A DNA stretch of 64,000 nucleotides, taken from positions 5,367 through 69,366 of the forward strand of contig JBFYLP010000002.1 in assembly GCA_041305345.1 (NCBI GenBank), read 5' to 3'. This DNA is from Candidatus Micrarchaeota archaeon. Its GTDB lineage: Archaea > Micrarchaeota > Micrarchaeia > Norongarragalinales > SBBD01. Each line of letters starts with the position of its first letter. Positions within the stretch are counted from its first letter, which is position 1. Below, piece by piece: positions 934-54,807 of the stretch. The notes under the pieces are model-generated. The model worked only from the letters and a program-made list of their open reading frames with translations. It had not been told where the DNA came from and did not search any database. The position numbers were made by a program, and so were the translations under genes.

Positions 934-1353
934 TTGAACGACAAGGGGGGGATGCTGGTGGGCAGGAAACGGATTGTTGCAAAGCCAAGGAAGGCTCCAA
1001 GGCACGTTAGCATTGGCGCGAAGCGAGCGATGCACGATGCGGAGATCGACCGCCTCAAGCAAGCCGTGCTGAAAAGGCACCACGAATGGCTTAGGCCCCC
1101 CGGGAAAACGCACTATTTCCTATATTTCATAACCATTCTTATGATTTTTTCCGGCATTTTCCTAATTTCCAGCAGGGCAATGGCCCTATCCCCCATTGCA
1201 ATTGCCATTACGTTTGTAATAACCGTCCTCCTGGCTGCATCGTTCATAATGCTTCTCCAATACAGGATGGGTGACCGCTCCCAGAAATCGCTTGAGGAGC
1301 GCATCGAGAACGAGATATTGGAATTCAAAATCGAGGGGCTTTCCAAGAGATGA
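934..1353 (+). CDS. hypothetical membrane protein (2 predicted TM helices)
   Basis: Basic N-terminus followed by two hydrophobic stretches (FLYFITILMIFSGIFLI, IAIAITFVITVLLAASFIML). Its stop overlaps the next start in an ATGA. Confidence 0.4.
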   Translation: MNDKGGMLVGRKRIVAKPRKAPRHVSIGAKRAMHDAEIDRLKQAVLKRHHEWLRPPGKTHYFLYFITILMIFSGIFLISSRAMALSPIAIAITFVITVLLAASFIMLLQYRMGDRSQKSLEERIENEILEFKIEGLSKR

Positions 1354-11829: not shown

Positions 11830-12318
11830 ATGAAAACCGCATTGGTCATTGGCAGGTTCCAGCCCTTCCATAATGGGCATTTGGAAGCATTAAGGAAAAT
11901 CATTAGGGAAAATGGCGCGTTGCTATTGGTGATTGGGAGCGCCCAGGAAAGCAGGACCGAAAAGAATCCGTTTACCGTTGGGGAGCGGATCGAAATGATC
12001 TCAAATTGCCTTCGGAATGAGGGATTGCTTTCAATGACAAAATTGGTAACGCTAAATGATGAGAACGACCATTCACGATGGCTCAAACGCCTTCTTGAAA
12101 TCGCAAAAACCGCGGATGTTGCCTACTCCGGCAATTGGCTGGTGCAGCATTTGCTCAAAAACAGGTTAAAAGTGCAGAAGATGACCTCGAGCGTAAAAAT
12201 ATCCGCCACGGAGATAAGGAGGATGATCCGTTCCAAGGACCCGAAATGGAAACAATTCGTGCCTCCGGCAATAATTAGCTGCTTGGTCAAGGGACGTCTA
12301 TTGAGGCACGTAACCTGA
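11830..12318 (+). CDS. nadM: nicotinamide-nucleotide adenylyltransferase, archaeal type
   Basis: GRFQPFHNGH (HxGH) motif near the N-terminus. About 160 aa. Confidence 0.85.
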   Translation: MKTALVIGRFQPFHNGHLEALRKIIRENGALLLVIGSAQESRTEKNPFTVGERIEMISNCLRNEGLLSMTKLVTLNDENDHSRWLKRLLEIAKTADVAYSGNWLVQHLLKNRLKVQKMTSSVKISATEIRRMIRSKDPKWKQFVPPAIISCLVKGRLLRHVT

Positions 12319-12324
12319 ACGGTC

Positions 12325-12888
12325 CTATTTCCTAAGGAACCAGGCCGCAAACTTCCTAAGCGCCTTTGCACGGTGGGAAAATTCCGCCTTTTCCGCCTTA
12401 TCCATCCTGCTGATCCTCTTTGCCTTCCCCTCCGGGATAAAAAACGCCTCATACGGCAGTTTTTGGTTCCTGAATGCGGGGGAATCTGGAGCTTTTGTTA
12501 TGGTGCCCCTGCAAATCCCAACAAAGGTTTTAATGTTTTTTCCGTCGTGGTAGGCAACCACCGTCTTGAAATGGGCGCCACGATCCTTTCCCCTAAGCAA
12601 ACGCAGCAATCCCCCGTAACCCATTGCCTTGAAGATGAATGCAGGGAATACACCGGGGAAATTCACATACGCGTTGAAATATACGCCCGTATCCTCTGCG
12701 ATAACGGGTTTTTTTATGGCCAAGAACGCGGATTTGGCCTTTTCGATTGCAATCCTCTCCTGATCCTCAGATCTGATTTCATTTAGCTCCATTTCGGCAG
12801 GAATCACTTTTATTCGCACCCTTCCCAAAATCTGCCTTGCCTCCGCGATTTTTTCCGGGTTTGAGCTTGCAAAATGGATGGTTTTCAT
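12325..12888 (-). CDS. non-canonical purine NTP pyrophosphatase (Ham1/RdgB, ITPase)
   Basis: Motifs SSNPEKIAEARQIL, EDTGVYFNAYVNFPG and FSHRAKALRKF. Start taken at the internal ATG (MKTIHFASS) to avoid overlapping the ATPase 3' end. Confidence 0.8.
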   Translation of the reverse strand: MKTIHFASSNPEKIAEARQILGRVRIKVIPAEMELNEIRSEDQERIAIEKAKSAFLAIKKPVIAEDTGVYFNAYVNFPGVFPAFIFKAMGYGGLLRLLRGKDRGAHFKTVVAYHDGKNIKTFVGICRGTITKAPDSPAFRNQKLPYEAFFIPEGKAKRISRMDKAEKAEFSHRAKALRKFAAWFLRK

Positions 12889-12937
12889 CTTTACGACACC
12901 GGCATATCTCTCGATTCGGCTGCCATACGCGTGAATT

Positions 12938-15688
12938 TCAAGCAAGCCGCCCCGTCTTCCTGAAATGAGTGTAATGCTTTGCCACTTCCCCTAAGATGAA
13001 AATTGAGGATCCGACCATCAGGATCGCTAGCCAATCAGCTGCGGATAATGGCACCGTCTTGAACACTGCCTCGAGCACGCCCGTCTGGACTATTGCAACC
13101 TGCGCAACAAGGCCCAGGATCACTGCGGCAAAAAGGAACCTGTTTTTCAAGACGCCAACGGATACGAGCAATTCCCTGCCGGTATGCCAGCTCATTGCAA
13201 GGAAAAGCTGGAAGAAAATGATGGTGCTGAATGCAACCGTCCTCGCTTTTTCCAAGCCATCATTTAGGTTGACATACCAAAACAGCCCAAGAGTGCCAAT
13301 TGCCATCAATATGCCAATGAAGGCGAGCCTTTTTACCTCTGCATCAGAGATCAGCGGCTCGCCTGGATTCCTCGGCCTGCGGGCCATGATGTCCAAAGCC
13401 TTGGTATCCGCTGCGAGCGCAAGCGCAGGCAGGGCATCTGTTGCAAGGTTCATCCAAAGGATTTGTATGGGAATTAGGGGTGAATCCCAGCCAAGCAAAA
13501 TCGCAACGAGGATTACGAGTACCTCGCCGATGTTGCAGGAAAGCAGGTATTTTACTGCCTTCATAATGTTGTCGAATACTATCCTGCCCTCCTCGACCGC
13601 AGCCACGATGGATGCGAAATTGTCGTCCGTAATCACCATATCGGCGCTTTCCTTGGCAACGTCCGTCCCGGTAATCCCCATCGCAACCCCGATGTCGGAT
13701 TTTTTTATTGCAGGCGCATCATTGACGCCATCTCCCGTCATTGCCACTATCTCGCCCTTCTTTTGCAATGCGGCTACGATCCTAAGCTTGTGTTCCGGGG
13801 AGACCCTTGCGTAAACCGCAACGTTGCCAACGATTTTTTCGAATTCGGCATCCGTTAGCTCTTCCAGTTTCCTTCCTGTAAGTATCAGGTCCTTCCTTTC
13901 ATCATACATCCCAAGTTCCTTCGCTACCGCTCTTGCCGTCAAATCATTGTCGCCAGTAATCATGACTGCCTTTATTCCCGCCTTCTTGCAGATGGCAATT
14001 GCCTCCCTGGCCTCCTGCCTTGGCGAATCCATCATCGCCATCAAACCCACGAATACGAGCTCGTTTTCGATCTCGCCGATCTTGAATCCCTTAATCGACT
14101 TGTCCCTTATCATTTTGAACGCAAAACCCAGGACCCTAAGGCCCTCGGATGCGAAGGAGGCATTCTTTTTCAGAATGACTGCCTTCCCATCGCTGGTAAG
14201 CTTTTCGATTTTGCCATTTCTCATCGTGTAGCCGCATTTTTCAACAAGCATTTCGGGTGCTCCCTTGGTGTATGCGATCTTACCCGCCTCCTCCTCCTCG
14301 TAAATTACGGTCATCATCTTCCTACTCGAATCGAAGGGCAGTTCCTCAAGTTTCCTACGGCTCCTCCTTTCGAGCGAATAATCGATCCCCGCCTTTTTTG
14401 CTGCAACCAGCAGGCACGCTTCTGTGGGATCGCCAATGATGCTGCTGCTTTCTGCAAGTGCAGCATTATTGCAAAGGATTGCCGAGTTGAGGAGCTCGGT
14501 TAGGTTGGGTTCTTGCAACGGGCTTGGTATCCTCTTCCCCGTACTATCCAAAAATTCCCCGATGGCCTCGTAACCCTGCCCCGATATTCCAAAATCCCTC
14601 CTGTTCGTGAACACCTTCCTGACAGTCATCTCGTTTTTCGTGAGCGTTCCAGTCTTGTCCGAGCAGATTATGGTAGAAGAACCCAGCCCTTCGGCAGCAG
14701 GAAGCCTTCTGATGATCGAATTCCTCTTTGCCATCCTTTGCACGCCTATCGCAAGCGCAATGGTCACAACCGCCGGAAGCCCTTCCGGTATTGCTGCCAC
14801 GGCCAAGCTTACGGCAATGAGGAACATATCGACAATTATCTTTATGGTAACCCCCGCGCCCGCAACGCTCCTCCCAATTCCAACGATGAATACCAAAATT
14901 GTTGCAGCTATAGCTAACTTTCCAAGCTGCTTTCCAAGGGATTCCAATTTGACTTGCAAGGGCGTTTGTTCATCCTCAATTTCCTGCACAAGGTTTGCGA
15001 TCCTCCCTATTTCAGTGCTTTCGCCAGTGAAGCATACAACTGCCCTGGCAGAACCCGCAGTTACAAGGGTGCTCATGAACACCATGTTGTTACGGTCGTT
15101 GATCACCATCTTATACTCCACAATGGAAAGCGCATCCTTTTGTGCAGGCGCGCTTTCACCGGTAAGGCTCGCCTCTGAAACCTCCAGGTTGTGCGCCTCG
15201 ATAAGGCGGGCATCAGCTGGCACCTTGTCGCCCTCACTTAGCAGGATGATGTCCCCCGGAACAAGGTCGGATGTCGCTATCTCCCTCTCCTTCCCATCCC
15301 GGAGCACTTTCGCCTTGGGCTGGATTAATTTCCTTAGCGCTTCTATTGCCTTTCCCGCGTTATATTCCTGGTAGACGCCAATTACCGCATTGATGAATAC
15401 GATCGCAAGAATGGCAACAGAATCGATGTATTCGCCCTCATTCGTAAGGAATGTCGTTGCAGCTGAGATGATGGCTGCTGCTATCAGCAATAAAATGACA
15501 AAATCCTTGAACTCGCCAATGAACATGTCCAAAACGGTTCGTTTCTTCCGCTCCTTCAGCACGTTATTGCCATATTGCTTCAATCTTTCGGCTGCTTCCT
15601 TTGCATTCAACCCTTCGGTTCCCGAACCCAGCTTTTTCAAGGCTTCGGCTGCACTGATTGAGTAATAATTGGCCCCTGCGTTTGGCAT
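12938..15688 (-). CDS. P-type cation-transporting ATPase, type IIA (Ca2+/SERCA-like)
   Basis: Motifs CSDKTGTLTKNEM, MITGDN and GDGVNDAPAIKKSDIGVAMG. Ten TM segments. 916 aa. Confidence 0.9.
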   Translation of the reverse strand: MPNAGANYYSISAAEALKKLGSGTEGLNAKEAAERLKQYGNNVLKERKKRTVLDMFIGEFKDFVILLLIAAAIISAATTFLTNEGEYIDSVAILAIVFINAVIGVYQEYNAGKAIEALRKLIQPKAKVLRDGKEREIATSDLVPGDIILLSEGDKVPADARLIEAHNLEVSEASLTGESAPAQKDALSIVEYKMVINDRNNMVFMSTLVTAGSARAVVCFTGESTEIGRIANLVQEIEDEQTPLQVKLESLGKQLGKLAIAATILVFIVGIGRSVAGAGVTIKIIVDMFLIAVSLAVAAIPEGLPAVVTIALAIGVQRMAKRNSIIRRLPAAEGLGSSTIICSDKTGTLTKNEMTVRKVFTNRRDFGISGQGYEAIGEFLDSTGKRIPSPLQEPNLTELLNSAILCNNAALAESSSIIGDPTEACLLVAAKKAGIDYSLERRSRRKLEELPFDSSRKMMTVIYEEEEAGKIAYTKGAPEMLVEKCGYTMRNGKIEKLTSDGKAVILKKNASFASEGLRVLGFAFKMIRDKSIKGFKIGEIENELVFVGLMAMMDSPRQEAREAIAICKKAGIKAVMITGDNDLTARAVAKELGMYDERKDLILTGRKLEELTDAEFEKIVGNVAVYARVSPEHKLRIVAALQKKGEIVAMTGDGVNDAPAIKKSDIGVAMGITGTDVAKESADMVITDDNFASIVAAVEEGRIVFDNIMKAVKYLLSCNIGEVLVILVAILLGWDSPLIPIQILWMNLATDALPALALAADTKALDIMARRPRNPGEPLISDAEVKRLAFIGILMAIGTLGLFWYVNLNDGLEKARTVAFSTIIFFQLFLAMSWHTGRELLVSVGVLKNRFLFAAVILGLVAQVAIVQTGVLEAVFKTVPLSAADWLAILMVGSSIFILGEVAKHYTHFRKTGRLA

Positions 15689-29709: not shown

Positions 29710-30915
29710 CTACCATTTATCCCTGGCCGCATTCCGCCTAACTTTCTTTGTAAGCATCCTCCGAAACACAATAGGCGCTATCAGGGTTGATGCCAGGGCC
29801 ATGAAAATCAATGCTGTAAATATCTCATCGGTAATCAGCTTATTTTGCAATGCAAGCGAGGCAACTGCAAGCTCGACATCCCCTTTTGCGGTAACTCCCC
29901 AGCCTACAAGAAGCCCCTCCTGCAGCGTGCCCTTGTCGTATAGGATGGCAAGTGTGGTTCCAATCACGGTTCCGCCAATTGCAATGATGCTAAGCGCAAT
30001 GCCAAGGAGGGGGTTGGAAAAGAAGGATGGGACATCCACATTCAGCCCCACCCACACAAAGAAAAGGGGTACGAGGAATCCGAACGAAACCGCGTGTATC
30101 GTGCTTGAGATCTCGTGCACTTCCCAGGGCCTTCGGTGCTTTTCCTGCAGGAGCGAGTGCCTAACAATCACGCCCGCAATTAGTGCGCCCGCAAGCGCCC
30201 CAAGGCCAAGGAAGTCGGAAATTGATGCCATTGAAAGCGTCAGGATGAGCGCTACCATGAAAAGAACCGATGGCGAATGCTCTTTCTGGACGACATTTAG
30301 CGCGAAAGGCACTAGGAGGAAGCGCATTATTGCTGCCACTCCGATGAATGCAAGCATCCCAATGACCACTTCCTGGATGTTCCCGCTTCCAAGGGAGATC
30401 TGGAGGTAGGATATGATGAGAGAGATGAAAATCAGCTCAAGCAGATCATCAACCGAGCCGGTTACGACTATTAGGTTCCCGATTTTGGTTTTAAGCAGGT
30501 TGAATTCCTCGAGGAAATCAAGCGAGATGGCTGTTGAGCTAACAGCAAGGCAGATTCCAACGATTATGGCAACCGATGGGTCGTAGCCAAGCAAATAGAT
30601 CAATGCCGTTCCAAGAATGAATGGAATGGCGGTGTTGAGCGCGGAAATCAGGATGGTTTTCTTGAAATGCCTCTGGAACTCCTTCAAATTCACCTCGAAA
30701 CCCGTGAAAAAGAAGAGCAGCACGATGCCAATATCCGCAAGGCCGGACATCACCTCGCTATTCGAGGTCGTCAGGAGCGCATCCCTTGCAAAAAAGCCAA
30801 TTAGTATTCCCGCTGATATCTGCCCAACGACCCTTGGAATGTGGTAGCGCCTGCATAGCTCTGAAAGGAAATACGCGAAGGTTAGGGCCGTAAGCAGGAG
30901 GAACACGAAATTCAT
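29710..30915 (-). CDS. monovalent cation:proton antiporter (CPA2/Kef-NapA type)
   Basis: About 11 TM segments and an N-terminal LSELCRRYHIPRVVGQISAGILIG typical of Kef-type exchangers. Confidence 0.75.
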   Translation of the reverse strand: MNFVFLLLTALTFAYFLSELCRRYHIPRVVGQISAGILIGFFARDALLTTSNSEVMSGLADIGIVLLFFFTGFEVNLKEFQRHFKKTILISALNTAIPFILGTALIYLLGYDPSVAIIVGICLAVSSTAISLDFLEEFNLLKTKIGNLIVVTGSVDDLLELIFISLIISYLQISLGSGNIQEVVIGMLAFIGVAAIMRFLLVPFALNVVQKEHSPSVLFMVALILTLSMASISDFLGLGALAGALIAGVIVRHSLLQEKHRRPWEVHEISSTIHAVSFGFLVPLFFVWVGLNVDVPSFFSNPLLGIALSIIAIGGTVIGTTLAILYDKGTLQEGLLVGWGVTAKGDVELAVASLALQNKLITDEIFTALIFMALASTLIAPIVFRRMLTKKVRRNAARDKW

Positions 30916-30999
30916 GGAAGAAGTAGGCGCCTACCGTATAAAATACTTGGCTTTGCTCTTGCTAAAGCTAAGGAAAAAAATAAAAAAAAGGGAAAAAAA

Positions 31000-33900
31000 T
31001 CAGAGTCCTTTGCGCCTTATTTGCCTTCTCTTGCCAATGACCACGAGGGCAACCAAGGCAGCGATGAAAGCGAGCCCGTATTCCCAAGGAAGTACGCTTG
31101 CTGCAAACAGCCCGGTTGCGGGATTCACTTCGGGCAATGCCGTCGCCTGCGGTAAAGGAACCGTTTCCGAAGTGGTCAGCCTTGGCATTTGCACTGGTTT
31201 TTCTGGTTCAACAGGCACGTACTGCTTGGGTTTTACCGCCTCGACATTCTGGGCTTTTGTTGCCGGTGTTGATTTGGTTTCCTCGCTTGCTGGCGCTTCA
31301 GGCACGCTTTGGGGCATATAATATGAGGAGCCTCCCGAGCTTCCGGATGAACCGGATGTGGTTGCTGGCGAAATGGGCGTTGGCGCAGTTGCGGATATGG
31401 ACGAGCCTTCATTCCCAACCGTATCTACTGCGGTTACTGCCCAGTTGCCCGTTTGCCCTGCTGTATCGTATGCATTTGAGCTTGTCGAATCAACAAGCAC
31501 CCCATCCAGATATACATTATAGTGATCCACACCGTTTGCATCGGTTGCTGCCGGCCACGAAAGGATGCCGTTGCTTATTGTCACGGCGCCCATTTCCGGA
31601 GCCCGAAGATCGATCTTGATTTCTATCTGCGGGTCGGAGCAATGCGCAGGGATTTCCGCCCCATCGGGCAAATCTCCCTCAAACAAATTGTCGCATGCGC
31701 GCGCCCTCATATAGTATGTCTTCCCATCCTCCAAGCCCTCGGCCGTTGTATTGAAGTCCTCTCCGTAGAGGTCATCAACCTTGTATGGAAGCACGCGCCA
31801 GCCCGAATCATATTTCTCAGGCCCGATTGGCACTCCAAACAGGCTTCCAAGGTCCTCGAAGATGCGGTATTGCACCGTGTCCTCCCTAATGCCTGATGCG
31901 TCCTGCGCCATCATCTCTATTGGGATGATCTGGCCGTACGTTTCACCGCTTTGGGGCGATGTAATTTCCTTTTCTGGCGGTGAATTGTCGACCATCATCG
32001 TGGCGCTTACATTTGCCTTGTTGTATTCCATATCCATTGCAAACAATGCAAGCGTATGTGAGCCATCGTTCAGACCAATAGGCGCATTCCCGAATACCTT
32101 GCAGTTGCTGTCATCAATTATCTGGCCAGCAAAGCTGAAGGTCTGCTCAATGCACTCGTCATCGTTGCACGTCTCCTGCGTGATTTCGCCCGAGCATTGG
32201 AATAGCGCCGAATCATGGTCTTCTGCCTTCAAGTATGCGGCAAAGTAATCGCCGGTGCTTAAGGGCTCATCAAGGCCTTCAGTGTGGTCGAGTTCAATGA
32301 ATGGAGCCTGATTGTCGATGTCCATCAGTATGACATCGCCCATAGTATCCCGCGCCAGATCGTAGTAGGTGTTGCAGCTCCGGTCATTTATCTCAATGAC
32401 AAGATATGCCTTGTCTGTCAAGCCCGATTCCTCCGGAATCTGGACGCTTCCCTTGCATACTCCGTCATCAAATGGCACGCTCCCCAGTGAAACCAGATGG
32501 TATCTTTCCGGCCCCAGATATTCGAGCAAGTTATCGAATAGGTAAGGCTTCCTCATCAGGAGCATCACTGCCTGCAGCTCTGTTTCTGTAAGTTCCTCGA
32601 AATGCACATCCATCGCATAGAACATGCAGCTCGTAAATCCGCTTGCAGGGTCTCCCTTGTCCATTGCTGGCGCATATACGGAGAACTTCTCACCATCGTG
32701 GTACCATCTTCCGGATGTTGGATTCAATACCCAGCCTTTTGGCGGCTGTTTGTCGAAGATGTCAATTTCCGACTGCATCCCTTCCTCGTTAAACAACTGG
32801 TCCTGGCTGTAGTATTCGATCTCATACTCGCCTTCGATGCTGAATGCGAACTCCATTCCGGGCTCATATTCGATCCAATCCGACCATCCTCCGCCATTTA
32901 TTTGGTAGCGGTAATAGGTAATGGTTCCATCAACGTGGCAGATGGGCCCCCCATCTAGGGCTGAAAAGCCAATTAAGGTATCCCTGCATACGTAATAGTC
33001 GCACTCTTCTTCGGGCCCGCAGGCGGTCTTATTGCCCATAATGATCTTCTCGGTTTCGGGCGGAGTTGTATCGACGCGGTCTATTTCAGTTGTCAGGTTT
33101 GCCCTGTTCCCAAGTGCATCCTCGCAATAGTATTCTATTGTATGCACGGAATCCTCCTTGAAGTTTATGGTTGCACTGGTGCCCTCAACAACGACCCACT
33201 CCTCCCATTGCCCTCCATCGACATTGTACCGGTACAAAATGCTTACCCGGTCAACGGGATGCGGGTATGGGTCCGTGCATTCCAACGTGATGTCCGTATT
33301 CTGCGTGATGAAGTAATGGCAATCATCCCTCCCAAGATCTTCGCACGATATTGACGGCTTTCCAACCACCTTGCTGATTACCGGAGGCTGCGTTTCCACT
33401 ATGTCAATTTCCATTTGGGTTCTTTCCTGGTTGCCAAGCGCATCTACTGAGTAATAATACAGCGTATGCCTCGAATCCTCCGGGAATGTGAATGGCCCAG
33501 TGTACTCCGTCTCGTTTGTGCACCAATAGTCGGTCACCAATTCGATTTGTTCATCCCCTGGCTCCTCGCCTACGCAGTACCAGTAATAGGTTCTTACGCG
33601 GTCAACCGGATGCGGTTCCGGATCAATGGCTGCAAGAGTGATTGTTGTTTGCTGGGTGATGTAGTAGTCGCATTGTTCATCTTGATCGCATTCCACCTTT
33701 GGATCGCCAACTGTCTTGGTCGTTACGGGCGGAACTGTCTCGATATAGTCGATTTCAGAATAGGTCGGTCCCTTGTTTCCAAGTGCATCCTCCGCATAAT
33801 ATTCAATAGTGTGCTTGGAGTCCTCAGCGAAGTAAAGGTCATTCTCAAAAAGCGCCCAGTTAGACCAATCGCCGTCATTCACGTTGTAGCGGTAATATAT

Positions 33901-36900
33901 TTTTACTGCATCAACCGGATGCGGGAGCGGATCTGTTGCCTCGAAGGAGATTGGCGTACTTTGCGTTATGTACCAGTCGCACCCCTCTCCTATTCCGCAC
34001 GCAACCTTCGGGTCGCCTACTGTTTTCGCAACGGTCGGCCCCTGATTGTCCACAATATCCAGTTCGGTTTGCGTTAGCGCGGTATTTCCAAGAATGTCCT
34101 TGCAATAATATTCGATCTCGTGCATCGAATCTTCCGGTAGGGTGAAAGTCACTTCGTCATCCTCAGTGACGACAAAATCCCCCCATTCTCCCCATTCGCT
34201 GTTCTCATCGAGCCTATATCTGATCCGATAGCTAATCGAAACGTGATTCGACGGATGCGGATTTGGATCAGTGCAATAGAGCGTTATTGGCGTTTGGGAT
34301 GTGACGTAGAAATCGCAGCCGTTCTTGTCCACGCAAGGCACTTTCGGTTCGCCCACCACTTTCCTTACGACTGGAGGCACGGTTTCGACGATATCGATTT
34401 CCGTGTGCTCTTCCTCCTCATTCCCGAGTGCATCAACGCAGTAATATTTCAGCGTGTGCATCGAATCTTCGGGGAAGGTGAATGGCCCTTCATAAAGCAT
34501 CAAGTCCGTCCATTCGCCATCGTCAACAAGGTATTTGTATAAAAGCTGTTCCCCTCCAACAGGATGCGGATCTTGATCAATGCAGCTCATTGTAATCGGT
34601 GTTTGCTGCGTTATGTACCAGTCGCATTCCTCTCCTGTTTCGCATTCGTGCTTTGGATCCCCGACCGTCTTTTGGGTTTCTGGGGGCTGGGAGTCGACGA
34701 CATCGATCTCAGTCATTATGTCCCCTTCATTTCCTAGCGCATCCGTGCAATAGTATTCGAGCGTGTGCATTGAATCTTCAGGGTAGGAGAACGGACCCTC
34801 GTATTCTGTCCATTCATCCGGGAAATCGCCATCATTTATTTTATAGCGGAAGAAGATTTGCTCTCCTGCAACAGGGTGCGGATAAGCATCCTCACATTCA
34901 AGGGTTATCTGGGTATCGGTGGTCATGTAATAATCGCATCCGAGCGAATCGTCCGGTTCGCATTTCACTTGCGGCTTTCCGACCATTTTCTCCACTAATG
35001 GTGGCTGAGAATCCACAAAGTCCGCCTCGAGCATATGCCTTCCCATATTCCCCACATAATCGACAGCGAAGTAGGTTAGCGTGTGGTATGAGTCCTCCTC
35101 ATAACTGAATGGCCCGGAGTACTCGATCCATCCGGTGCATGTTTCAGGATCGACCAGGTAATCCGGCCTTGAGCAAATCTTGTAGAATATTTTTATTGGC
35201 TTGTTTGCCGCGTGGCCGAAATCAGTTGCAGTGAGGGTGAATTCCGTATCCTGCGTTACGTAATAATCGCATTCGTAGATGCCTTCATCAAGCGGTTGGC
35301 ATTCGACTTTGGGATCGCCCACGGTTTTCTCAACAATTGGCGGCTGCGAATCGACCTTTTCAACTTCGGAATGGGTCTGTTCAACATTGCCAAGAGCATC
35401 CACGCAATACCATTCAAGCTCGTGCCGCGAATCTTCCTCGTATGTAAAAGTGCCCGAATAAGTAATCCAATCGGTGAACTCCTCATCATCCAGTTTGTAT
35501 CGGTATTTGATTGTTATCGCATCAGACGGGTGTGGTTCCTGGTCGTTGCAGGTTAGGGTGATTGGGGTTTGCTGCGTAATGAAGTAATCGCAGCCATCAC
35601 CAGCCTCACAAGGCGCCTTGGGCTCTCCAAGCGTCTTTTCACTCACAGGGGCTGCCGTATCCACGATGTCAATCTCAAACCAATGCCTCTCCTCGTTGTT
35701 GCAGAAATCGATGCTGTAATACTCGATTTCGTGTATGCTGTCTTCGGAGAATGAGAATGGCTGTGTGTAAAGAATCCATCCACTCCAGCTGCCCCATCCA
35801 TCTTCGAAATCTTCCTTCCAGCGGTGCCTATAGTACACTTTTTGCTGGTCCGAGAAGTAGCCATCGCCCGGATCTGGATCCACTGACGTAAACGATATTT
35901 CCGTATCCTGCGTCACATAATAGCAATTTGCCGCTTCCTGCTCCTCCCCAAGGTAATCACAAGCGATTCTGGGTTCTCCTATTGTTTTCGTTGTTTGCGG
36001 CGGAGTCCGATCGATCACAAAGCACACTTCCTGCTGGAAGCTCATTTTCCCCCAATTGCCCGCAAGGTCCTTTCCGTGTAGCTTTACGCAATGCCTCCCT
36101 TCTTCGTGGAGGCTTGAATTGAAAGTGGCGTTCACCCATTCGCAAAGCTCATCCCAGCCGCCGTCCATCGGCCCCATCTGGTATCCCTGGCCGTTTGGCC
36201 ACGAGTTCCAAGTGCCGTCAAGGAAATATTCCGCCTGCACAACCGGCGATTGCGAATCGCAAATCTCTGCTGTTAGCTGCGGATTGCCCGCACATACCCA
36301 ATATGGAATGGTGATATTCCTTACGACTTCCGGGGGAATCTGGTCAACCTCGAACGTATCATAATTGCATTCTCCCCATTCACCGTTCTCATTCTGTGCC
36401 CTTACGTAGACCGTGTGCCTTCCGTCACCAATGCCAAAATTCTGCAAAATCACATTCCTTGCTGCAATTATCTCCCAGAATTTGTCATTATTGAATTGGC
36501 CATCGTCAGTAGGATAGATGCCAGTTCCCGTGCCTGGCTCGTCGCAATAATCGAAATAGAATTCTGCATAATGGATAGGCGAACAATCCTCTGAGACATT
36601 CGCGTGGATGTTCAGCCTGAAATTAGCCGGGTCGGGTATCGCATTAACTGAAACCACTACCGGTCCAAGAGTGTCAATCGGGCCATCGGAAGGATCGCAG
36701 GTATCGTACATCACTCCGTCCCTGCAATAAATATTGGAATATTCCTCTCCGCAGCCATTCGGTGTGCACGCCTGTTCCCCATAATAGCAAAGTCCCTGGT
36801 AAATCGTGCCCGGAATAGGGCAATAAGCATCCATTTCATATTCGCACGAGCAAGAGTCGGTGTTGCAGCCTCCACCATAATAGCAGATATCCCCAACGAT

Positions 36901-37533
36901 CTTCTCGCCGCAGGCTTCCTGGTTTTCAGTTGAGCATTCGTCCGGTGGAACCGTGCATTGTGGGGTTGGGGATGGTGAAGGGATTATGCAGTTCGCATCA
37001 ACTTCGCATTCCCATTGCCCTTCGCCTTCAATTTGAATGCACTGCTGATCCCTGCAAACCATATGATATGGCGTAGGTGTAGGCGAAGAAATGACGCAAT
37101 CATCATTCGTTTCACAGGTTGACGGTTCATTCCCGGTTCCTTGAAGCTGGGCACACGTCAAATCAACACAAGTCCAGTAATAATACGGTTCCGGAGTCGG
37201 TGAGGTAATGATGCAATCCTCCGATGTACTGCAAGTTGACGGTTCATTCCCGGTTCCTTGAAGCTGGGCGCACGTAAGATCGACGCAGGCCATATAATAG
37301 TAGGGATCCGGAGATGCAGACGGGCTTGGGGAAATGCAAGGAGATGGGGTGCATTGGGTGGTCACCATCTGGGGGCCTTCATCGCCAGTTTCACCTAGGT
37401 TTTCACCACCGGTTTCGGCGGAGCTCACGCTAACTAGGAGCCCTGCAAGAAGGAGCAACAGGTATATGTGGTAAGATGCAAACACATTCTGCAATGCGCC
37501 CGAAAGACCCTTCCCGACATTCCTATTGCCCAT
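31000..37533 (-). CDS. giant (2177 aa) surface protein with signal peptide, triplicated Cys-rich module, about 12 tandem Ig-like repeats, a Ser/Thr/Pro stalk and a C-terminal TM anchor
   Basis: N-terminal hydrophobic signal (IYLLLLLAGLLVSVSS). Three repeats contain CVDLTCAQLQGTGNEPSTC. Repeats of 105-115 aa follow the pattern VDxxPPxxxKxVGxPKxxC...CDYYxTxxTxITLxCxDxxPHPV...YRY..DG.W..W..YxGPFxFxEDSxHTxEYYxVDALGN. C-terminal STP-rich region, TM helix LAFIAALVALVVIG and KRRQIRRKGL tail. Confidence 0.75.
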   Translation of the reverse strand: MGNRNVGKGLSGALQNVFASYHIYLLLLLAGLLVSVSSAETGGENLGETGDEGPQMVTTQCTPSPCISPSPSASPDPYYYMACVDLTCAQLQGTGNEPSTCSTSEDCIITSPTPEPYYYWTCVDLTCAQLQGTGNEPSTCETNDDCVISSPTPTPYHMVCRDQQCIQIEGEGQWECEVDANCIIPSPSPTPQCTVPPDECSTENQEACGEKIVGDICYYGGGCNTDSCSCEYEMDAYCPIPGTIYQGLCYYGEQACTPNGCGEEYSNIYCRDGVMYDTCDPSDGPIDTLGPVVVSVNAIPDPANFRLNIHANVSEDCSPIHYAEFYFDYCDEPGTGTGIYPTDDGQFNNDKFWEIIAARNVILQNFGIGDGRHTVYVRAQNENGEWGECNYDTFEVDQIPPEVVRNITIPYWVCAGNPQLTAEICDSQSPVVQAEYFLDGTWNSWPNGQGYQMGPMDGGWDELCEWVNATFNSSLHEEGRHCVKLHGKDLAGNWGKMSFQQEVCFVIDRTPPQTTKTIGEPRIACDYLGEEQEAANCYYVTQDTEISFTSVDPDPGDGYFSDQQKVYYRHRWKEDFEDGWGSWSGWILYTQPFSFSEDSIHEIEYYSIDFCNNEERHWFEIDIVDTAAPVSEKTLGEPKAPCEAGDGCDYFITQQTPITLTCNDQEPHPSDAITIKYRYKLDDEEFTDWITYSGTFTYEEDSRHELEWYCVDALGNVEQTHSEVEKVDSQPPIVEKTVGDPKVECQPLDEGIYECDYYVTQDTEFTLTATDFGHAANKPIKIFYKICSRPDYLVDPETCTGWIEYSGPFSYEEDSYHTLTYFAVDYVGNMGRHMLEADFVDSQPPLVEKMVGKPQVKCEPDDSLGCDYYMTTDTQITLECEDAYPHPVAGEQIFFRYKINDGDFPDEWTEYEGPFSYPEDSMHTLEYYCTDALGNEGDIMTEIDVVDSQPPETQKTVGDPKHECETGEECDWYITQQTPITMSCIDQDPHPVGGEQLLYKYLVDDGEWTDLMLYEGPFTFPEDSMHTLKYYCVDALGNEEEEHTEIDIVETVPPVVRKVVGEPKVPCVDKNGCDFYVTSQTPITLYCTDPNPHPSNHVSISYRIRYRLDENSEWGEWGDFVVTEDDEVTFTLPEDSMHEIEYYCKDILGNTALTQTELDIVDNQGPTVAKTVGDPKVACGIGEGCDWYITQSTPISFEATDPLPHPVDAVKIYYRYNVNDGDWSNWALFENDLYFAEDSKHTIEYYAEDALGNKGPTYSEIDYIETVPPVTTKTVGDPKVECDQDEQCDYYITQQTTITLAAIDPEPHPVDRVRTYYWYCVGEEPGDEQIELVTDYWCTNETEYTGPFTFPEDSRHTLYYYSVDALGNQERTQMEIDIVETQPPVISKVVGKPSISCEDLGRDDCHYFITQNTDITLECTDPYPHPVDRVSILYRYNVDGGQWEEWVVVEGTSATINFKEDSVHTIEYYCEDALGNRANLTTEIDRVDTTPPETEKIIMGNKTACGPEEECDYYVCRDTLIGFSALDGGPICHVDGTITYYRYQINGGGWSDWIEYEPGMEFAFSIEGEYEIEYYSQDQLFNEEGMQSEIDIFDKQPPKGWVLNPTSGRWYHDGEKFSVYAPAMDKGDPASGFTSCMFYAMDVHFEELTETELQAVMLLMRKPYLFDNLLEYLGPERYHLVSLGSVPFDDGVCKGSVQIPEESGLTDKAYLVIEINDRSCNTYYDLARDTMGDVILMDIDNQAPFIELDHTEGLDEPLSTGDYFAAYLKAEDHDSALFQCSGEITQETCNDDECIEQTFSFAGQIIDDSNCKVFGNAPIGLNDGSHTLALFAMDMEYNKANVSATMMVDNSPPEKEITSPQSGETYGQIIPIEMMAQDASGIREDTVQYRIFEDLGSLFGVPIGPEKYDSGWRVLPYKVDDLYGEDFNTTAEGLEDGKTYYMRARACDNLFEGDLPDGAEIPAHCSDPQIEIKIDLRAPEMGAVTISNGILSWPAATDANGVDHYNVYLDGVLVDSTSSNAYDTAGQTGNWAVTAVDTVGNEGSSISATAPTPISPATTSGSSGSSGGSSYYMPQSVPEAPASEETKSTPATKAQNVEAVKPKQYVPVEPEKPVQMPRLTTSETVPLPQATALPEVNPATGLFAASVLPWEYGLAFIAALVALVVIGKRRQIRRKGL
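33000..36100 (-). repeat. coding tandem-repeat array of about 12 Ig-like (CHB_HEX_C/OmpL47-like) modules of 105-115 aa inside the giant gene
   Basis: Periodic recurrence of PP..EK.VG.PK...C, CDYY.TQ.T.ITL, PHPV, YRY..DG.W, GPF.F.EDS.HT.EYY and D.LGN in the translation. Confidence 0.7.
37118..37290 (-). repeat. near-identical 50-nt direct repeat (period 117 nt) encoding the duplicated CVDLTCAQLQGTGNEPSTC module
   Basis: gttgacggttcattcccggttccttgaagctgggc occurs at 37118 and again at 37235, with about 4 mismatches over the next 15 nt. Confidence 0.8.
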
Positions 37534-37848
37534 ACTGACCCACCCCTAGGTGTTGAATATTTTTTTTTAAAAAAGCGGTTTTAGAATCAGATTTCTGGGA
37601 ATGCGAGATTTCTCTGGGCACATACTGTTTTACAGGGAAACACTTAGCGCCCCTAATATGCAAAAATTCCCACCCCCCAAAATACTTAAAGCTAGAAGTC
37701 ATCGGAAGGAAACTATAAAAAGGGAACGGTAACTATCGTTCAGTTACAAATTTTATTCTAAAAAATGATTTTTGATAATAAAGGCTTAGATTGACACTCG
37801 AAAATATCCGTTTGCCAATAAAAAAAGAAATGGAGTTTGCCAATTTTC

Positions 37849-38340
37849 CTATTCCTGCGGCTTCCTTTTCACTTTCCACGTCTCAACGATGGAAGTCCAC
37901 TCCCCTCCGATATGCTTTAATGCCTCGCCGAATTTGGTTGAAATGCGCAGCACCATCTCGTGCCTCTTGTCCTTGTCCGTCTGGCCCGTTGGGTTTTTTC
38001 TTTCTCGTGCCAGAAGTCCGGTGGCAATCATCCTAGGTATCACAAGATTGCGAAGGGTGGATGTTGGGATGGTATTCTTAACCGCCCATTCCGCAACATC
38101 ATCCCCGGTTGCCTCCTCCTTAGATGCAAGGTAAACAAGCAGCTTTCCGCCGATTTCGAATTGCGCCTTCTTGAACTGCGGGGGAAAGATCAGCTTCAGT
38201 ATGTCCTCGGTTTCCCATCTCGCCTGCAGTGACATGGGTAATTTATTGTAATGGAACCAAAGGCTTTCCTTTGAGGGAATGCCGCGCGATGCCGGCTCCC
38301 CTGTTTTTTTTATTTCTGAAACGGCTACTTCAGCGTCCAT
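37849..38340 (-). CDS. hypothetical protein, possible winged-helix DNA-binding protein
   Basis: Central AEWAVKNTIPTSTLRNLVIPRMIATGLLARER resembles a wHTH recognition helix plus wing. Confidence 0.35.
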   Translation of the reverse strand: MDAEVAVSEIKKTGEPASRGIPSKESLWFHYNKLPMSLQARWETEDILKLIFPPQFKKAQFEIGGKLLVYLASKEEATGDDVAEWAVKNTIPTSTLRNLVIPRMIATGLLARERKNPTGQTDKDKRHEMVLRISTKFGEALKHIGGEWTSIVETWKVKRKPQE

Positions 38341-43277: not shown

Positions 43278-44522
43278 ATGGCTACAGAGCACGTACTAAT
43301 AGGGTTAATTGGCCTTACGATTTTCGTTGGCTACCTTTCCTCCGTTTTTTTCGACAAGACAAAGATCCCTGACGTGCTTTTGCTGATCCTGATGGGGATG
43401 ATTCTTGGGCCCGTCACCAACATCATCAACGGCACGCTGCTAATTGAGCTTGCCCCATTGATTGGGACCATTGCCCTTATCATCATAGTATTCGATGGGA
43501 GCACGAAGCTGAACTTCTTCGAGGTGCTAGACGAGCTTCCGGAAAGCATGTGGTTCACATTGCTTGTCTGCATCCTAACCGCCGCCTCGGTTGCCATCGC
43601 CTACCTTCTGACCTGGGCAGATGCCACTTTGATCCAGGGGCTGCTCCTTGGAATTGTGGTTGCAGGCACGAGTTATGAGATAATCGTGCCCCTGGTTGCC
43701 AAACTCACCGTAAAGGACAAAGTGAAGACGCTGCTCAATCTCGAATCCGCCCTTAATGACGTCATAACGATAGTTGCGCTGGTCGTACTGCTCAGTTACA
43801 TTTCGCCCTCCATCCAAACAAAGGTCAATCCCATCCAATTCTTCATCAGCACGTTTTCAATAGCGATATTCCTTGGCATAATTTCCGGGATTTTCTGGGT
43901 CAAGGTGCTCCAGAACTACAAGGGCAAGCCCTTTGAATACCTGCTCACCCTTGCGTTCGTTTTCCTCCTGTTTTCCGTTACGCAGGCATTCGATGGAAAT
44001 GGGATTACCGCAGTTTTGGTTTTCGGGCTTCTGCTTGGCAATTCGGATGCGATAGCAAGGCTCCTTAAGATAAAGGAGGAGCTTGGGCTTGACCCTGCCA
44101 TCACAAGATTCAACGCAGAAATAAGCTTTTTCGTTAGGACAATGTTTTTCGTGTATATGGGTATTGTGTTCATCGTTGACCAAAACGACCTGCTTCCCCT
44201 GTTGATCGGCGCATTCGTGGTTTTCCTTGCAGTCCTCATTGCAAGGATCGTGGCGGTCAAGGTACTGGTTAGGATGAATCCTTCAATTGGCGATTCGGAA
44301 ATCATCATAATGGCCATGCTTCCGCGCGGTTTGGCAACTGCCGTGCTTGCATCGCTTCCCCTTACGTATAAGGTCGATTTCCCCGCCATTGTCCAGATAG
44401 TGCTCGTTTTTATGCTAATCACGAACATCTTTGCTACAATCGCAGCTTACTATTTTGAAACCCAGGTAGCGCACCCTTCAAAAACCCAGGTGCCTGCCCC
44501 AGCCAAGGAGAAGAAGGAATAG
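43278..44522 (+). CDS. Na+/H+ antiporter, CPA1 (NhaP-type)
   Basis: About 12 TM segments. IIVFDGS and ESALNDVITIV motifs are typical of NhaP exchangers. Confidence 0.8.
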   Translation: MATEHVLIGLIGLTIFVGYLSSVFFDKTKIPDVLLLILMGMILGPVTNIINGTLLIELAPLIGTIALIIIVFDGSTKLNFFEVLDELPESMWFTLLVCILTAASVAIAYLLTWADATLIQGLLLGIVVAGTSYEIIVPLVAKLTVKDKVKTLLNLESALNDVITIVALVVLLSYISPSIQTKVNPIQFFISTFSIAIFLGIISGIFWVKVLQNYKGKPFEYLLTLAFVFLLFSVTQAFDGNGITAVLVFGLLLGNSDAIARLLKIKEELGLDPAITRFNAEISFFVRTMFFVYMGIVFIVDQNDLLPLLIGAFVVFLAVLIARIVAVKVLVRMNPSIGDSEIIIMAMLPRGLATAVLASLPLTYKVDFPAIVQIVLVFMLITNIFATIAAYYFETQVAHPSKTQVPAPAKEKKE

Positions 44523-45969: not shown

Positions 45970-47211
45970 ATGAAACTCCAAGTTCTAATCGGCATCGCAT
46001 TCGTTCTACTGGCAGGATGTGTCCAGATCGATTCGAATAAGGCGACTCCGACGCCGCAAGTGATATACGTGAATGCATCGCCACAAGTCATAGTGACCGT
46101 TGTCCCTTCGGCAGTACCCGTCGTGACCGAAAAAATCGTTTACCCCTCCGCTTCCAAAATCCCCTATGAGGAAAGGAAAGGCGGGCTGACCGACCTTGGC
46201 CTTCGGGAGGAATACGTTCCTTTTGACATCTCCAACGCCGCAAATGCCGATTACCACCACAATCCTTACCTGATCCTAAACACGATAGGGAAGAATTATT
46301 TCCCGGATTTGCAGGAGGGCAACCTCTATTGGGGTAAGGTGCCTTTCCACATCCTTGGCGATTACGACACTGCTAGGAAATGGAGCGTGCTAACTACTGC
46401 AAGCGAGGATTTCTATTCCGCTTCATTCCTGACCTCAAGAACGCGTATCACGGAAATTTATTTCCTCGTTTCGGGCTCCTTCAGGAAAGGAGACCGCCGC
46501 ATCCTTGGCGAGATCAAGCTCAACTACGGGGATGGCGACATACAGACAATCAACGTGGTATCGAACGAGAACGTATGGAATTACGAACCCGACGCGGAAT
46601 TCCCAATCCCTTTAGAGAAAATCGCCTGGCAGTACAACGGAACGAATGGAACGCAGACGCTAACGCTCATTGGGGAGAAACTAACGCGGCCCCTAACCCC
46701 AATAAGCGCCGTAACCATAAAGCGCACAGCTACCGGGGAGAATGGTTTCACGCTGTTTGCAGCAACCGGCGTCCAGAAGTTTAGGACCAAGCGGCTTTTA
46801 TTCACCCAAACCGAATTCCAAGAGGAAGGGTATAACCGGGTTTTTTCAACAACGCTGACAGCCGGCGCAATGATCAACTACGATGATTCGGGCGGTGTAC
46901 GAGTCTACCGCCCAGAGGGCGTGTTCGAATCGCCAGTCATAGACGGCGAGACCGAGCTTGTCAATTGGAAGAGGATTTCTTGGGACGCCGACCAATACCC
47001 TGGAACAACGGTCAAATTCCAATATAGGACGGGAAATACGGTCCAGATTGATGGCAGGTGGACCGAGTGGGAGGACGTACAGAACAATGCGGATATTCCA
47101 AAGGATGGGATGTTCCTCCAATGGAGGGCGCTGATGACGACCTCAGACAGCGCAAGGTCCCCGCTCCTGAAGGAACTAGTGCTCGAGTACGAGAACCCGC
47201 TCACAAGCTGA
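45970..47211 (+). CDS. secreted protein or lipoprotein (lipobox LAGC), beta-rich
   Basis: Signal MKLQVLIGIAFVLLAGC, a PT-rich linker, then a Tyr/Trp/Asn-rich domain. Confidence 0.5.
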   Translation: MKLQVLIGIAFVLLAGCVQIDSNKATPTPQVIYVNASPQVIVTVVPSAVPVVTEKIVYPSASKIPYEERKGGLTDLGLREEYVPFDISNAANADYHHNPYLILNTIGKNYFPDLQEGNLYWGKVPFHILGDYDTARKWSVLTTASEDFYSASFLTSRTRITEIYFLVSGSFRKGDRRILGEIKLNYGDGDIQTINVVSNENVWNYEPDAEFPIPLEKIAWQYNGTNGTQTLTLIGEKLTRPLTPISAVTIKRTATGENGFTLFAATGVQKFRTKRLLFTQTEFQEEGYNRVFSTTLTAGAMINYDDSGGVRVYRPEGVFESPVIDGETELVNWKRISWDADQYPGTTVKFQYRTGNTVQIDGRWTEWEDVQNNADIPKDGMFLQWRALMTTSDSARSPLLKELVLEYENPLTS

Positions 47212-53313: not shown

Positions 53314-54807
53314 ATGGCATTGGATGCATTCAAGCCCCTTTTGGAAATCCTTCCTGAAGTGAAGCCGCCTGCGCGCGCGCCCGGATTGAAGGAAAAGCTG
53401 ATGTGGACCGGCGGCGTGCTTCTTCTTTTCTACCTGATGGGCCAGATTTATCCCCTTGGCGCAGACCAAGCCGCAATACAGGGTTTCGAACGGTTTGAAA
53501 TCCTTCTTGGAAGCAAGACGGGCACTTTGATTACGACCGGTATCGGCCCCATTGTGCTCGCATCCATATTCCTCCAGCTAGCGGTCGGGGCAAAATTGCT
53601 CAATCTAGACCTTTCCCAGCAGGAGAACAAGAAAAAATTCCAGGGCTTCCAGAAATTGCTAGCAATCGTGCTCAGTTTGGTGGAAGGGTTCATATATTCC
53701 AAGGCAATCATAGTCGCAAAGGACGTGATCGACCCCACTACGGGCGCGCCCTCAGCTGCAATGTTTGCTGCAAATGCGATCCTTGGCGTGATCACTCCCC
53801 TGCAGCTAGGCATAATGCTTCAATTGGCGCTTGGCTCGATTTTCCTTCTATACCTGGATGAAGTGTGCCAGAAATACGGGATCGGCTCGGGGGTTTCGCT
53901 GTTCATTGCAGCCGGAGTTGCGCAGGCAATCTTCATCGGTTCTTTTGGCTATCTGGGGTTTGATTATCTCCTTGCACCCGAAGACATACGAACGGAACCC
54001 GTCGGTATAATCCCCTCCGCGCTCTTCAACCTCTTTGGCGGCAGGATCGATGTGGTGCTCTGGACCATTCTTCCCTTGGTGTTCACGGCAATCGTATTCC
54101 TGATCACGGTGTATGCCGAAGGCATGAAGATTGAATTGCCCCTCGCTTATGGGGGGGCAAGGGGGCTTGGCGCAAGGTACCCGATCAAATTCTTGTATGT
54201 GAGCAACATCCCAGTCATCCTGGCTTCAGCGCTTCTTCTCAACGTGCAGGTCATCGGGTTGTTCATGGCAAATGCGGGTTTGCCCCTGCTTGGCGAATTT
54301 GATAGGAGCAACAATCAGCCCTTTCCCGACCTAAGGGGCGGATTTGCATACCTAACTAGCGCTTTGCCCTCACCAATCCTATTGCCCGGCGGGTACTTCA
54401 CATATGCAACGCAATACCTGATGAACCCAACCGAAATACTCCACATACTCGTTTACGGCATCGTCCTTGTGATCCTTTGCGTAGTATTTGGATGGTTCTG
54501 GATTGAGAGCACCGGAATGGGAGCCGAGAAGGTCGCAGACCAGCTCAACAGGACGGGCCTCCAGATTCCGGGCTTCAGGCAGGATCCGCGCGTAACGGAG
54601 AAAATATTGCAGAAATACATACCGATTATTACCGTGCTTGGAAGCATTTTCGTGGGCATACTCGCGTGGTTCGCCGACATTACCGGCGCACTTGGGACGG
54701 GTACGGGCATTCTTCTAACAGTAGGCATATTGTACCGCTTCTACGAGGACCTTGCACAGCAGCAGATTTTCGAGATGTACCCGATACTGAAGAGGATTTC
54801 AAGATGA
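53314..54807 (+). CDS. secY: preprotein translocase subunit SecY
   Basis: Ten TM segments and a 497-aa SecY-like organisation and N-terminus. Confidence 0.95.
   Translation: MALDAFKPLLEILPEVKPPARAPGLKEKLMWTGGVLLLFYLMGQIYPLGADQAAIQGFERFEILLGSKTGTLITTGIGPIVLASIFLQLAVGAKLLNLDLSQQENKKKFQGFQKLLAIVLSLVEGFIYSKAIIVAKDVIDPTTGAPSAAMFAANAILGVITPLQLGIMLQLALGSIFLLYLDEVCQKYGIGSGVSLFIAAGVAQAIFIGSFGYLGFDYLLAPEDIRTEPVGIIPSALFNLFGGRIDVVLWTILPLVFTAIVFLITVYAEGMKIELPLAYGGARGLGARYPIKFLYVSNIPVILASALLLNVQVIGLFMANAGLPLLGEFDRSNNQPFPDLRGGFAYLTSALPSPILLPGGYFTYATQYLMNPTEILHILVYGIVLVILCVVFGWFWIESTGMGAEKVADQLNRTGLQIPGFRQDPRVTEKILQKYIPIITVLGSIFVGILAWFADITGALGTGTGILLTVGILYRFYEDLAQQQIFEMYPILKRISR

Follow-up and report, generated by a model that had tools for sequence, protein, structure and literature searches.

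A giant gene from a Micrarchaeota-related DPANN archaeon encodes a probable membrane-tethered, fibrillar-adhesin-like surface protein with OmpL47-type repeats

The longest open reading frame (ORF) in the 64-kb stretch of contig JBFYLP010000002.1 analysed here (the window) lies on the minus strand at 31000-37533, is unbroken from its ATG start to its TGA stop and encodes a giant protein of 2177 amino acids (aa). Nucleotide coordinates are positions in the window, and aa numbers refer to the 2177-aa protein. From its domain order and predicted fold the protein is probably tethered to the membrane of a Micrarchaeota-related DPANN archaeon and displayed on the cell surface in the manner of a fibrillar adhesin. 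Attachment to a host cell, a neighbouring cell or a matrix is the best inference for its function; the adhesive role is deduced from the layout of the protein, its OmpL47-type repeats and the identity of its top structural match, and an earlier note made from the DNA letters had suggested an adhesin or an S-layer-associated protein. The parts of the protein are as follows.

31000..37533, minus strand: whole coding sequence, 2177 aa plus TGA; 243 kDa, isoelectric point (pI) 4.1, 3.7% Cys
37417..37533, minus strand: aa 1-39, Sec-type signal-peptide-like N-terminus by hydropathy, conserved in orthologs P0002-P0004
aa 40-79, minus strand: acidic, Pro-rich lead-in, read from the sequence
36952..37296, minus strand: aa 80-194, three four-Cys modules in tandem, each of 37-39 aa, with Pro/Ser/Thr linkers, the putative distal tip
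37180-37296, 37063-37179 and 36952-37062, minus strand: the same modules singly, aa 80-118, 119-157 and 158-194
36679..36951, minus strand: aa 195-285, Cys-rich segment (17 Cys, of which several are invariant in the family alignment); low AlphaFold2 confidence
36004..36678, minus strand: aa 286-510, two divergent Ig-like domains (AlphaFold2, Foldseek), the conserved 'head' by which the family is recognised across DPANN
32743..36003, minus strand: aa 511-1597, ten tandem OmpL47-type repeats (repeat model, NCBIfam, AlphaFold2), the predicted stalk
31618..32742, minus strand: aa 1598-1972, membrane-proximal region, three further putative Ig-like domains by sequence and weak family matches alone
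31369..31617, minus strand: aa 1973-2055, FN3-like domain by a weak CbhB FN3-region match and by similarity to stand-alone anchor genes; first part of the anchor module
31129..31368, minus strand: aa 2056-2135, Ser/Thr/Pro/Ala-rich low-complexity linker of 80 aa
31003..31128, minus strand: aa 2136-2177, anchor tail with NPATGLF-x7-PWEYG, a transmembrane (TM) helix and KRRQIRRKGL

The stalk is the best defined of these parts. A hidden Markov model (HMM) trained on the repeats of this protein itself picks out exactly 10 strong units in tandem in aa 511-1597 (independent E-values of 3e-26 to 6e-52 each), with bounds at 511, 628, 731, 844, 950, 1053, 1165, 1268, 1383, 1491 and 1598, i.e., 103-117 aa per unit, and a weak echo in aa 410-508. 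Pairwise identity among the ten is 30-62% with a mean of 43%. The earlier note had counted about 12 Ig-like repeats, a reasonable figure once the ten strong units are taken together with the two divergent head domains. The full protein scores 191.3 bits against the NCBIfam model NF047446 for the OmpL47-type beta-barrel domain (cutoff 40, E 2.4e-57) over 9 stretches, and when the repeats are scanned singly 9 of the 10 match at E<=0.01 (best 2e-8). In one such single-repeat alignment, at 31 bits and thus below the cutoff of 40, model positions 22-63 of 68 are covered by the C-terminal half of the repeat, and the repeats add an N-terminal Cys-loop segment that lies beyond the domain model. The protein is not an OmpL47 equivalog, as it reaches only 79.9 bits against NF047441 Lepto_OmpL47 (cutoff 250). 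The suggestion that the repeats are of chitobiase-C or OmpL47 type thus holds for its second half and is not supported for its first, the full-length protein having no match to Pfam CHB_HEX_C_1 at E<=1. When the PDB was searched by sequence the full protein returned nothing and the repeat profile only a chance match (E 0.76). A repeat alignment run against a collection of 5.8 billion proteins did not recover even the giant protein itself, an outcome put down to the word index of that search and given no weight. The prototype and founding member of the domain family, OmpL47 (LIC13050) of Leptospira interrogans, was shown to be exposed at the cell surface in experiments with proteinase K, immunofluorescence and biotinylation (PMC2698987). 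It is however a spirochaete outer-membrane protein, whereas the protein described here is archaeal and has a C-terminal TM anchor.

An AlphaFold2 model of repeats R4-R5, computed from an alignment of 26 repeat pairs from the family, shows two in-line beta-sandwiches of seven strands each at high confidence (predicted local distance difference test, pLDDT, 96.6; predicted TM-score, pTM, 0.85). The top Foldseek match of this model in the PDB is SiiE of Salmonella, a giant Ca-binding adhesin (E 5e-5, TMq 0.57), followed by tandem FN3 pairs of adhesion molecules and by phage tail-fibre proteins; model and search agree with the earlier description of the repeats as Ig-like beta-sandwich modules. 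The N-terminal model (aa 41-513) has a mean pLDDT of 69, with the two head domains at aa 286-510 predicted confidently (pLDDT mostly 74-92 in blocks of 10 residues) and the four-Cys modules modelled as a beta-hairpin and a short helix at moderate confidence (about 51-85 by the same measure). The best-scoring match of this whole model is again SiiE. The likeness to SiiE and the giant BIg-repeat or fibrillar adhesins of bacteria extends to a long tandem beta-sandwich stalk, a very acidic composition and a variable repeat number. On the other hand sequence identity to SiiE is only 15-16%, and the stalk has no membership in the Pfam BIg families. Stabilisation in the archaeal protein appears to be disulfide-based, and SiiE is described in PMC6272769 as type-I-secreted, whereas the archaeal protein has a Sec-type signal and a C-terminal TM helix. 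The tandem beta-sandwich stalk and the combination of export signal and surface anchor are those of the fibrillar adhesin class, with the difference that the anchor is a TM helix and not a bacterial cell-wall anchor.

The disulfides were approached through co-occurrence of Cys residues in 109 aligned repeats from 15 family proteins, numbered within the repeat. Of these repeats 61 carry both Cys35 and Cys83, 45 carry neither and 3 carry only one of the two (Fisher p = 2e-27, a value that overstates independence as the repeats are related by descent); for Cys15 and Cys21 the corresponding counts are 61, 37 and 11. The cross pairs Cys15-Cys35 and Cys21-Cys83 are independent. Presence of a pair flips repeatedly within single proteins, and the giant protein itself has 5 repeats with and 5 without. 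This signature implies two putative disulfides per repeat, and from the disulfides it follows that the protein would fold, and be located, outside the cell.

An extracellular location would also fit the ends of the protein. Only two segments are hydrophobic (19-residue Kyte-Doolittle mean >1.6), one at each end, aa 16-43 and aa 2145-2172. The N-terminal one has its core at aa 22-36 and a possible cleavage site, from hydropathy, after VSSA in a stretch ending VSVSSA. The C-terminal tail ends in GLAFIAALVALVVIGKRRQIRRKGL and has the layout NPATGLFAASVLPWEYG-LAFIAALVALVVIG-KRRQIRRKGL. Ser, Thr and Pro make up 39 of the 91 residues in aa 2050-2140, and the linker is possibly O-glycosylated. N-X-S/T sequons number 9 in 2177 aa, which we estimate to be about chance level for the composition. 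Hydropathy and composition thus bear out a layout proposed earlier: signal peptide, long ectodomain, Ser/Thr/Pro stalk and C-terminal TM anchor. The protein contains 385 Asp and Glu against 116 Lys and Arg residues, and 81 Cys. Halophily can be ruled out as the cause of the low pI, because the cytoplasmic proteins of the same window have pI values of 6-9, so that the acidity is specific to the giant protein and does not reflect a halophilic proteome.

Taken as a surface fibre, the protein would be exported by the Sec pathway (a SecY gene lies in the same window at 53314-54807) and held there by the one TM helix at its C-terminus, with a basic tail of 10 residues in the cytoplasm. The 80-residue linker, which would be flexible, and the FN3 domain would then raise a rod of about 15 further beta-sandwich-type domains, ten of them OmpL47-type, giving about sixteen domains in all, and each repeat would be stabilised by up to two disulfides, so as to stiffen the rod. 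Ig-like domains are typically about 4 nm long, which would place the tip roughly 50-70 nm from the cell by estimate. There the partner, conceivably the envelope of a host or neighbour cell or a matrix polymer, may be contacted by the Cys-knotted tip, which is variable, and by the double-Ig head, which is conserved.

Evidence that the C-terminal part is a unit of its own comes from relatives in which it is encoded separately. Three loci of Pacearchaeota (L003, L005 and L008) and one of an unclassified archaeon (L012) have a giant ORF that lacks a TM helix at its end. A second gene, of 228-306 aa, begins 9-48 nt downstream; its product has a separate signal peptide and an FN3 domain, joined through a Gly/Ser linker to a short TG-ending motif, a TM helix and a tail of Lys and Arg. 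The corresponding part of the giant gene is at 31003-31617 of the window, and the separate anchor genes are:

L003, 14471-15262: separate anchor gene
L005, 7647-8363: separate anchor gene
L008, 9104-9790 and 3263-4003: separate anchor genes, one of them before the giant gene
L012, 13606-14526: separate anchor gene

The stand-alone FN3 domains of L003, L005 and L008 are 36-38% identical to aa 1971-2055 of the giant protein (E 1e-12 to 3e-7), and that of L012 is about 30% identical over aa 1988-2060. Similar Cys-module and anchor matches lie downstream of the giant genes in L004 and L007. In the Micrarchaeota proteins and in P0005 the anchor module is fused to the giant C-terminus. This pattern of gene fission and fusion argues that the FN3-linker-TM part is a genuine functional membrane anchor for the predicted fibre.

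The same pairing can be read differently. A large secreted and a small membrane-anchored product from adjacent genes, as in L003, L005, L008 and L012, resemble slaA and slaB, and the giant protein might be an S-layer or S-layer-anchoring envelope protein, i.e., a fused SlaA-like outer subunit and SlaB-like membrane stalk with a structural and not an adhesive role. The layout of euryarchaeal S-layer glycoproteins is similar (signal peptide, beta-sandwiches, Ser/Thr/Pro linker, TM anchor), and Ig-fold proteins with a C-terminal TM helix have been described in Nanobdella aerobiophila and proposed as SlaB-like anchors. However, 3.7% Cys with paired covariation sits badly with S-layer proteins, which are described as poor in sulfur-containing residues, and the demonstrated S-layer protein of Micrarchaeota is a different protein of 101 kDa. 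The predicted shape is an extended rod, and a repeat number varying between 4 and 16, together with adhesion-type inserts in relatives, is hard to fit to a fixed lattice. No S-layer family in Pfam or NCBIfam matches the protein. A structural S-layer role is therefore less likely than an adhesive one, and we regard it as unlikely; the earlier note had left the choice between an adhesin and an S-layer-associated protein open, and the adhesin now stands as the best inference, mainly on the Cys content and on the different known S-layer protein. As compared with the Nanobdella proteins and SlaA/SlaB pairs, with which it shares Ig-like ectodomains on a C-terminal TM helix and, in its relatives, the large secreted and small anchored subunits, the giant protein is much longer and Cys-rich.

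Several points weigh against an adhesin-like fibre. Among the Pfam and NCBIfam families no recognised adhesive or ligand-binding domain was found in the giant protein. The tip region at aa 195-285 is modelled by AlphaFold2 at low confidence. The cleavage of the signal-like N-terminus is putative, and if uncleaved it would anchor the protein at both ends. Finally, the resemblance of the gene pairs of the relatives to slaA/slaB makes a structural envelope role conceivable by analogy.

How the tail holds the fibre may also be read in two ways. Micrarchaeota-type giant proteins end in [NSE]P[AT]TG[LF][FV] (with W or L for P in two cases), followed about eight residues on by PW.YG and then by the TM helix. 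With the low-complexity linker before it, this tripartite C-terminus of TG-ending motif, hydrophobic helix and basic tail resembles LPXTG sortase and archaeosortase (PGF-CTERM) substrates, and the module might be a true sorting signal, cut by a sortase-like enzyme that attaches the protein covalently to an envelope component, the TM helix then not being what retains it. In agreement with this the tail of P0003 passes the NCBIfam LPXTG_anchor model TIGR01167 (19.4 bits, cutoff 15.9), and the SPATG[LF]F-TM-basic tail also ends two small secreted proteins that are encoded beside giant genes in L009 and L012 but are unrelated in other respects, with xITG/xVTG variants ending small proteins in L003, L005 and L008. 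The motif of the giant protein is however NPATG, as against LPXTG or PGF, and its own tail passes no sorting-domain model: there is no match at E<=10 to TIGR01167 or to the archaeosortase models (PGF-, PEF-, VPXXXP- and PIP-CTERM), and the best sorting-model match, Rumino_NPXTG at 15.8 bits (cutoff 23.5), covers the TM part only. The tail of P0002 gives a sub-threshold PEF-CTERM score (16.7 bits, cutoff 23). No processing enzyme was identified, with no sortase TLxTC motif in the family loci examined, no sortase or exosortase Pfam family among the 30 window proteins scanned (64 kb of genome) and no paper found that links sortases to DPANN archaea. A tail profile run against 1.84 billion representative proteins returned members of the same giant family only, plus two spurious repeat proteins; this points away from covalent sorting of the giant protein, while as to a wider sorting signal the search neither supports nor excludes one. 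Sorting in place of retention on the TM helix is, on balance, quite improbable. It would be a bold speculation, and one that we rate as correspondingly doubtful, that the tail module is an undescribed LPXTG-like DPANN sorting signal, read by a sortase- or archaeosortase-like enzyme, and that a single conserved apparatus of surface fibres serves host attachment in DPANN archaea, taking the form of a gene pair in Pacearchaeota and of a fused protein in Micrarchaeota.

The L009 protein with the SPATGFF-TM-basic tail (12270-13178) is a 302-aa secreted protein with long Pro/Ser/Thr linkers and a segment, DINGDGIASDVLDVVYL, that looks dockerin-like by eye. A protein of this kind with the same type of anchor beside a family member brings to mind a tethered polymer-binding or enzyme-scaffold protein that serves nutrient capture, e.g., by binding polysaccharides, a role that would suit the chitobiase-type likeness seen in the earlier note. 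The relative P0005 adjoins a cellulase-family gene and glycosyltransferases, and FN3 and Big-type modules are frequent in glycoside hydrolases. Against nutrient capture, neither Pfam nor NCBIfam scans detected a catalytic or carbohydrate-binding module in the giant protein, the lack of a CHB_HEX_C_1 match applies here too, and its neighbours in the window are housekeeping genes. Such a role appears very unlikely.

The attachment reading has precedents among DPANN archaea, one of them in what has been proposed for the Ig-fold surface proteins of Nanobdella. Giant membrane-anchored Ig-repeat proteins of Nanohaloarchaeota ('SPEARE', e.g., SVXNc_0300) have been proposed to act in host attachment (PMC10266531), and they share with the present protein the DPANN host, a Sec signal, many tandem Ig-like domains (tens in SPEARE), a TM segment and a pI of about 4. 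At 8,900-9,400 aa they are far longer than 2177 aa, and their TM segment is followed by a cytoplasmic VirB4/TraG-like ATPase where the giant protein has only 10 residues. No ATPase family of Pfam or NCBIfam matches it, and a nanohaloarchaeal-type secretion conduit is ruled out by the lack of a cytoplasmic ATPase domain.

Apart from an identical NCBI entry on a 297,668-bp contig, the nearest matches are hypothetical proteins of likewise giant size (2131-3783 aa), the best named one being from a Candidatus Micrarchaeota metagenome-assembled genome (MAG). Its locus (L001) is syntenic with the window: four small upstream genes are 38-86% identical, the giant gene 54%, and the alpha and beta subunits of phenylalanyl-tRNA synthetase (PheRS) 70 and 67%, with a Na+/H+ exchanger gene inserted before PheRS in the window. 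These similarities agree with a DPANN-type host; the earlier note had taken the protein to be archaeal. At 54% the giant protein is less conserved than flanking genes at 67-86%. When the conserved head region was scanned against one genome per GTDB species, matches were found in Micrarchaeota, Pacearchaeota (four MAGs), Nanoarchaeota, Woesearchaeota, Nanohaloarchaea, where a MAG (L010) holds a weak relative of the family, and one unclassified archaeon, with one weak match in Bacillota. The repeats had been thought unusual for an archaeal protein, but this family of head and repeats is spread over no fewer than five DPANN lineages. The repeat number across the family is 4-16.

The repeats of the giant protein are 56-77% identical to their positional counterparts in the ortholog P0002 and only 37-56% to any sister repeat. 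Concerted evolution is ruled out by this difference; the array must be old and has not been homogenised, although its length still changes, P0002 carrying an extra repeat block between R3 and R4. By region, identity to P0002 is 69-71% for the stalk, 42% for the linker and 49% for the Cys modules of the tip, the least conserved folded part, of which there are three copies here, two in P0002 and no counterpart in P0003. The membrane-proximal region (aa 1598-1972) is 62-87% identical to P0002 and P0015. Big_7, the only Pfam family above threshold in the whole protein, falls within it (best stretch aa 1853-1888), as does a weak Big_13 match (aa 1809-1849). Low identity, a variable tip, a varying repeat number and inserted domains would together be typical of the evolution of surface proteins.

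Several relatives carry inserted domains. In P0002 an NHL/Reg_prop propeller (aa 1616-2080) interrupts a stalk repeat just after its N-terminal KxxG.PK..C segment and before its Y[IV]T core. The integrin-beta-like VWA domain of P0003 is inserted in a membrane-proximal domain at about aa 2100-2440, and the same protein has a first insert at aa 851-1088 without Pfam match; an insert in P0004 spans aa 1551-2333. VWA domains and propellers are typical ligand-binding modules, and judged by its sequence the giant protein is a minimal version without such inserts, its distal end being formed by novel Cys modules where relatives carry a VWA domain or a propeller. It is conceivable that the stalk may serve as a display scaffold.

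Metagenome assemblies tend to collapse genes that are rich in repeats, and the giant gene could in principle be an artefact, either because its repeat array was collapsed or is a chimera or because its long ORF is spurious. An assembly collapse is unlikely because the DNA of the stalk repeats is only 60-77% identical, no exact repeat within the coding sequence is longer than 35 nt (37118-37152 and 37235-37269) and Tandem Repeats Finder reported no array on the DNA. The ortholog is colinear, with the positional repeat orthology given above, and synteny is kept on both sides of the gene. An artefact of either kind is hardly credible. The exact 35-nt repeat encodes AQLQGTGNEPST in Cys modules 1 and 2, and its flanking codons differ at several synonymous sites; it could be a short gene-conversion tract or reflect strong local constraint. 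A near-identical recent duplication of the Cys module, as supposed from the positions 37118 and 37235, is not borne out, as the 117-nt units are 73% identical and only this core is exact.

The protein family is uncharacterised and no paper on it was found, while the kind of protein is known: a giant acidic Ig-repeat DPANN surface protein with a fibrillar-adhesin-like stalk. What is new here is the confirmation of the OmpL47 type, the fold prediction, the evidence from Cys pairs, the distribution in DPANN, the nested domains in relatives, and the fused versus split anchor. Existing knowledge on how such proteins work is unchanged. Most knowledge of DPANN archaea comes from genomes, and a life attached to other cells is assumed for many of them. 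The giant gene is a concrete candidate for such attachment, conserved across DPANN, with a confidently predicted stalk fold, a variable and testable tip, evidence for disulfides and a separable anchor. It may guide the choice of targets for antibodies, labelling in cryo-electron tomography and recombinant binding assays in Micrarchaeota co-cultures.

The giant gene looks like an independent archaeal transcription unit, an inference from a TATA-like run and a Shine-Dalgarno-like motif on its 5' side and oligo-T on its 3' side:

37556..37574, minus strand: TATA-box-like A/T-rich run TTTTTTAAAAAAAAATATT, 23-41 nt 5' of the ATG; read directly, a putative promoter element
37539-37546, minus strand: Shine-Dalgarno-like GGGGTGGG; read directly
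30971..30999, minus strand: oligo-T runs immediately 3' of the stop, archaeal-terminator-like; read directly, a putative terminator

Scans of the window for tRNA genes and Rfam families gave no match. The four small upstream genes are ruled out as functional partners, since no locus has them apart from that of the closest Micrarchaeota MAG, where they are syntenic. The one just upstream (37849-38340, minus strand) encodes a 163-aa protein without Pfam family that shares 86% identity with the corresponding protein of the Micrarchaeota MAG and is thus better conserved than PheRS (67-70%), and it is absent from the other DPANN loci. On the other side, the Na+/H+ exchanger gene at 29710-30915 (minus strand) separates the giant gene from PheRS alpha and is missing at that place in L001; a second Na+/H+ exchanger gene lies at 43278-44522. 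Elsewhere in the window, 1350-2927 (plus strand) encodes a likely secreted acidic protein of 525 aa (pI 4.3), which has an N-terminus resembling a signal peptide and contains an FN3 or purple-acid-phosphatase-N-type domain. The products of 6243-7196 and 45970-47211 (both plus strand) have no Pfam family and begin with lipobox-like N-termini (LFSGCVA and LLAGCVQ), and may be surface lipoproteins; the former contains 3.8% Cys.

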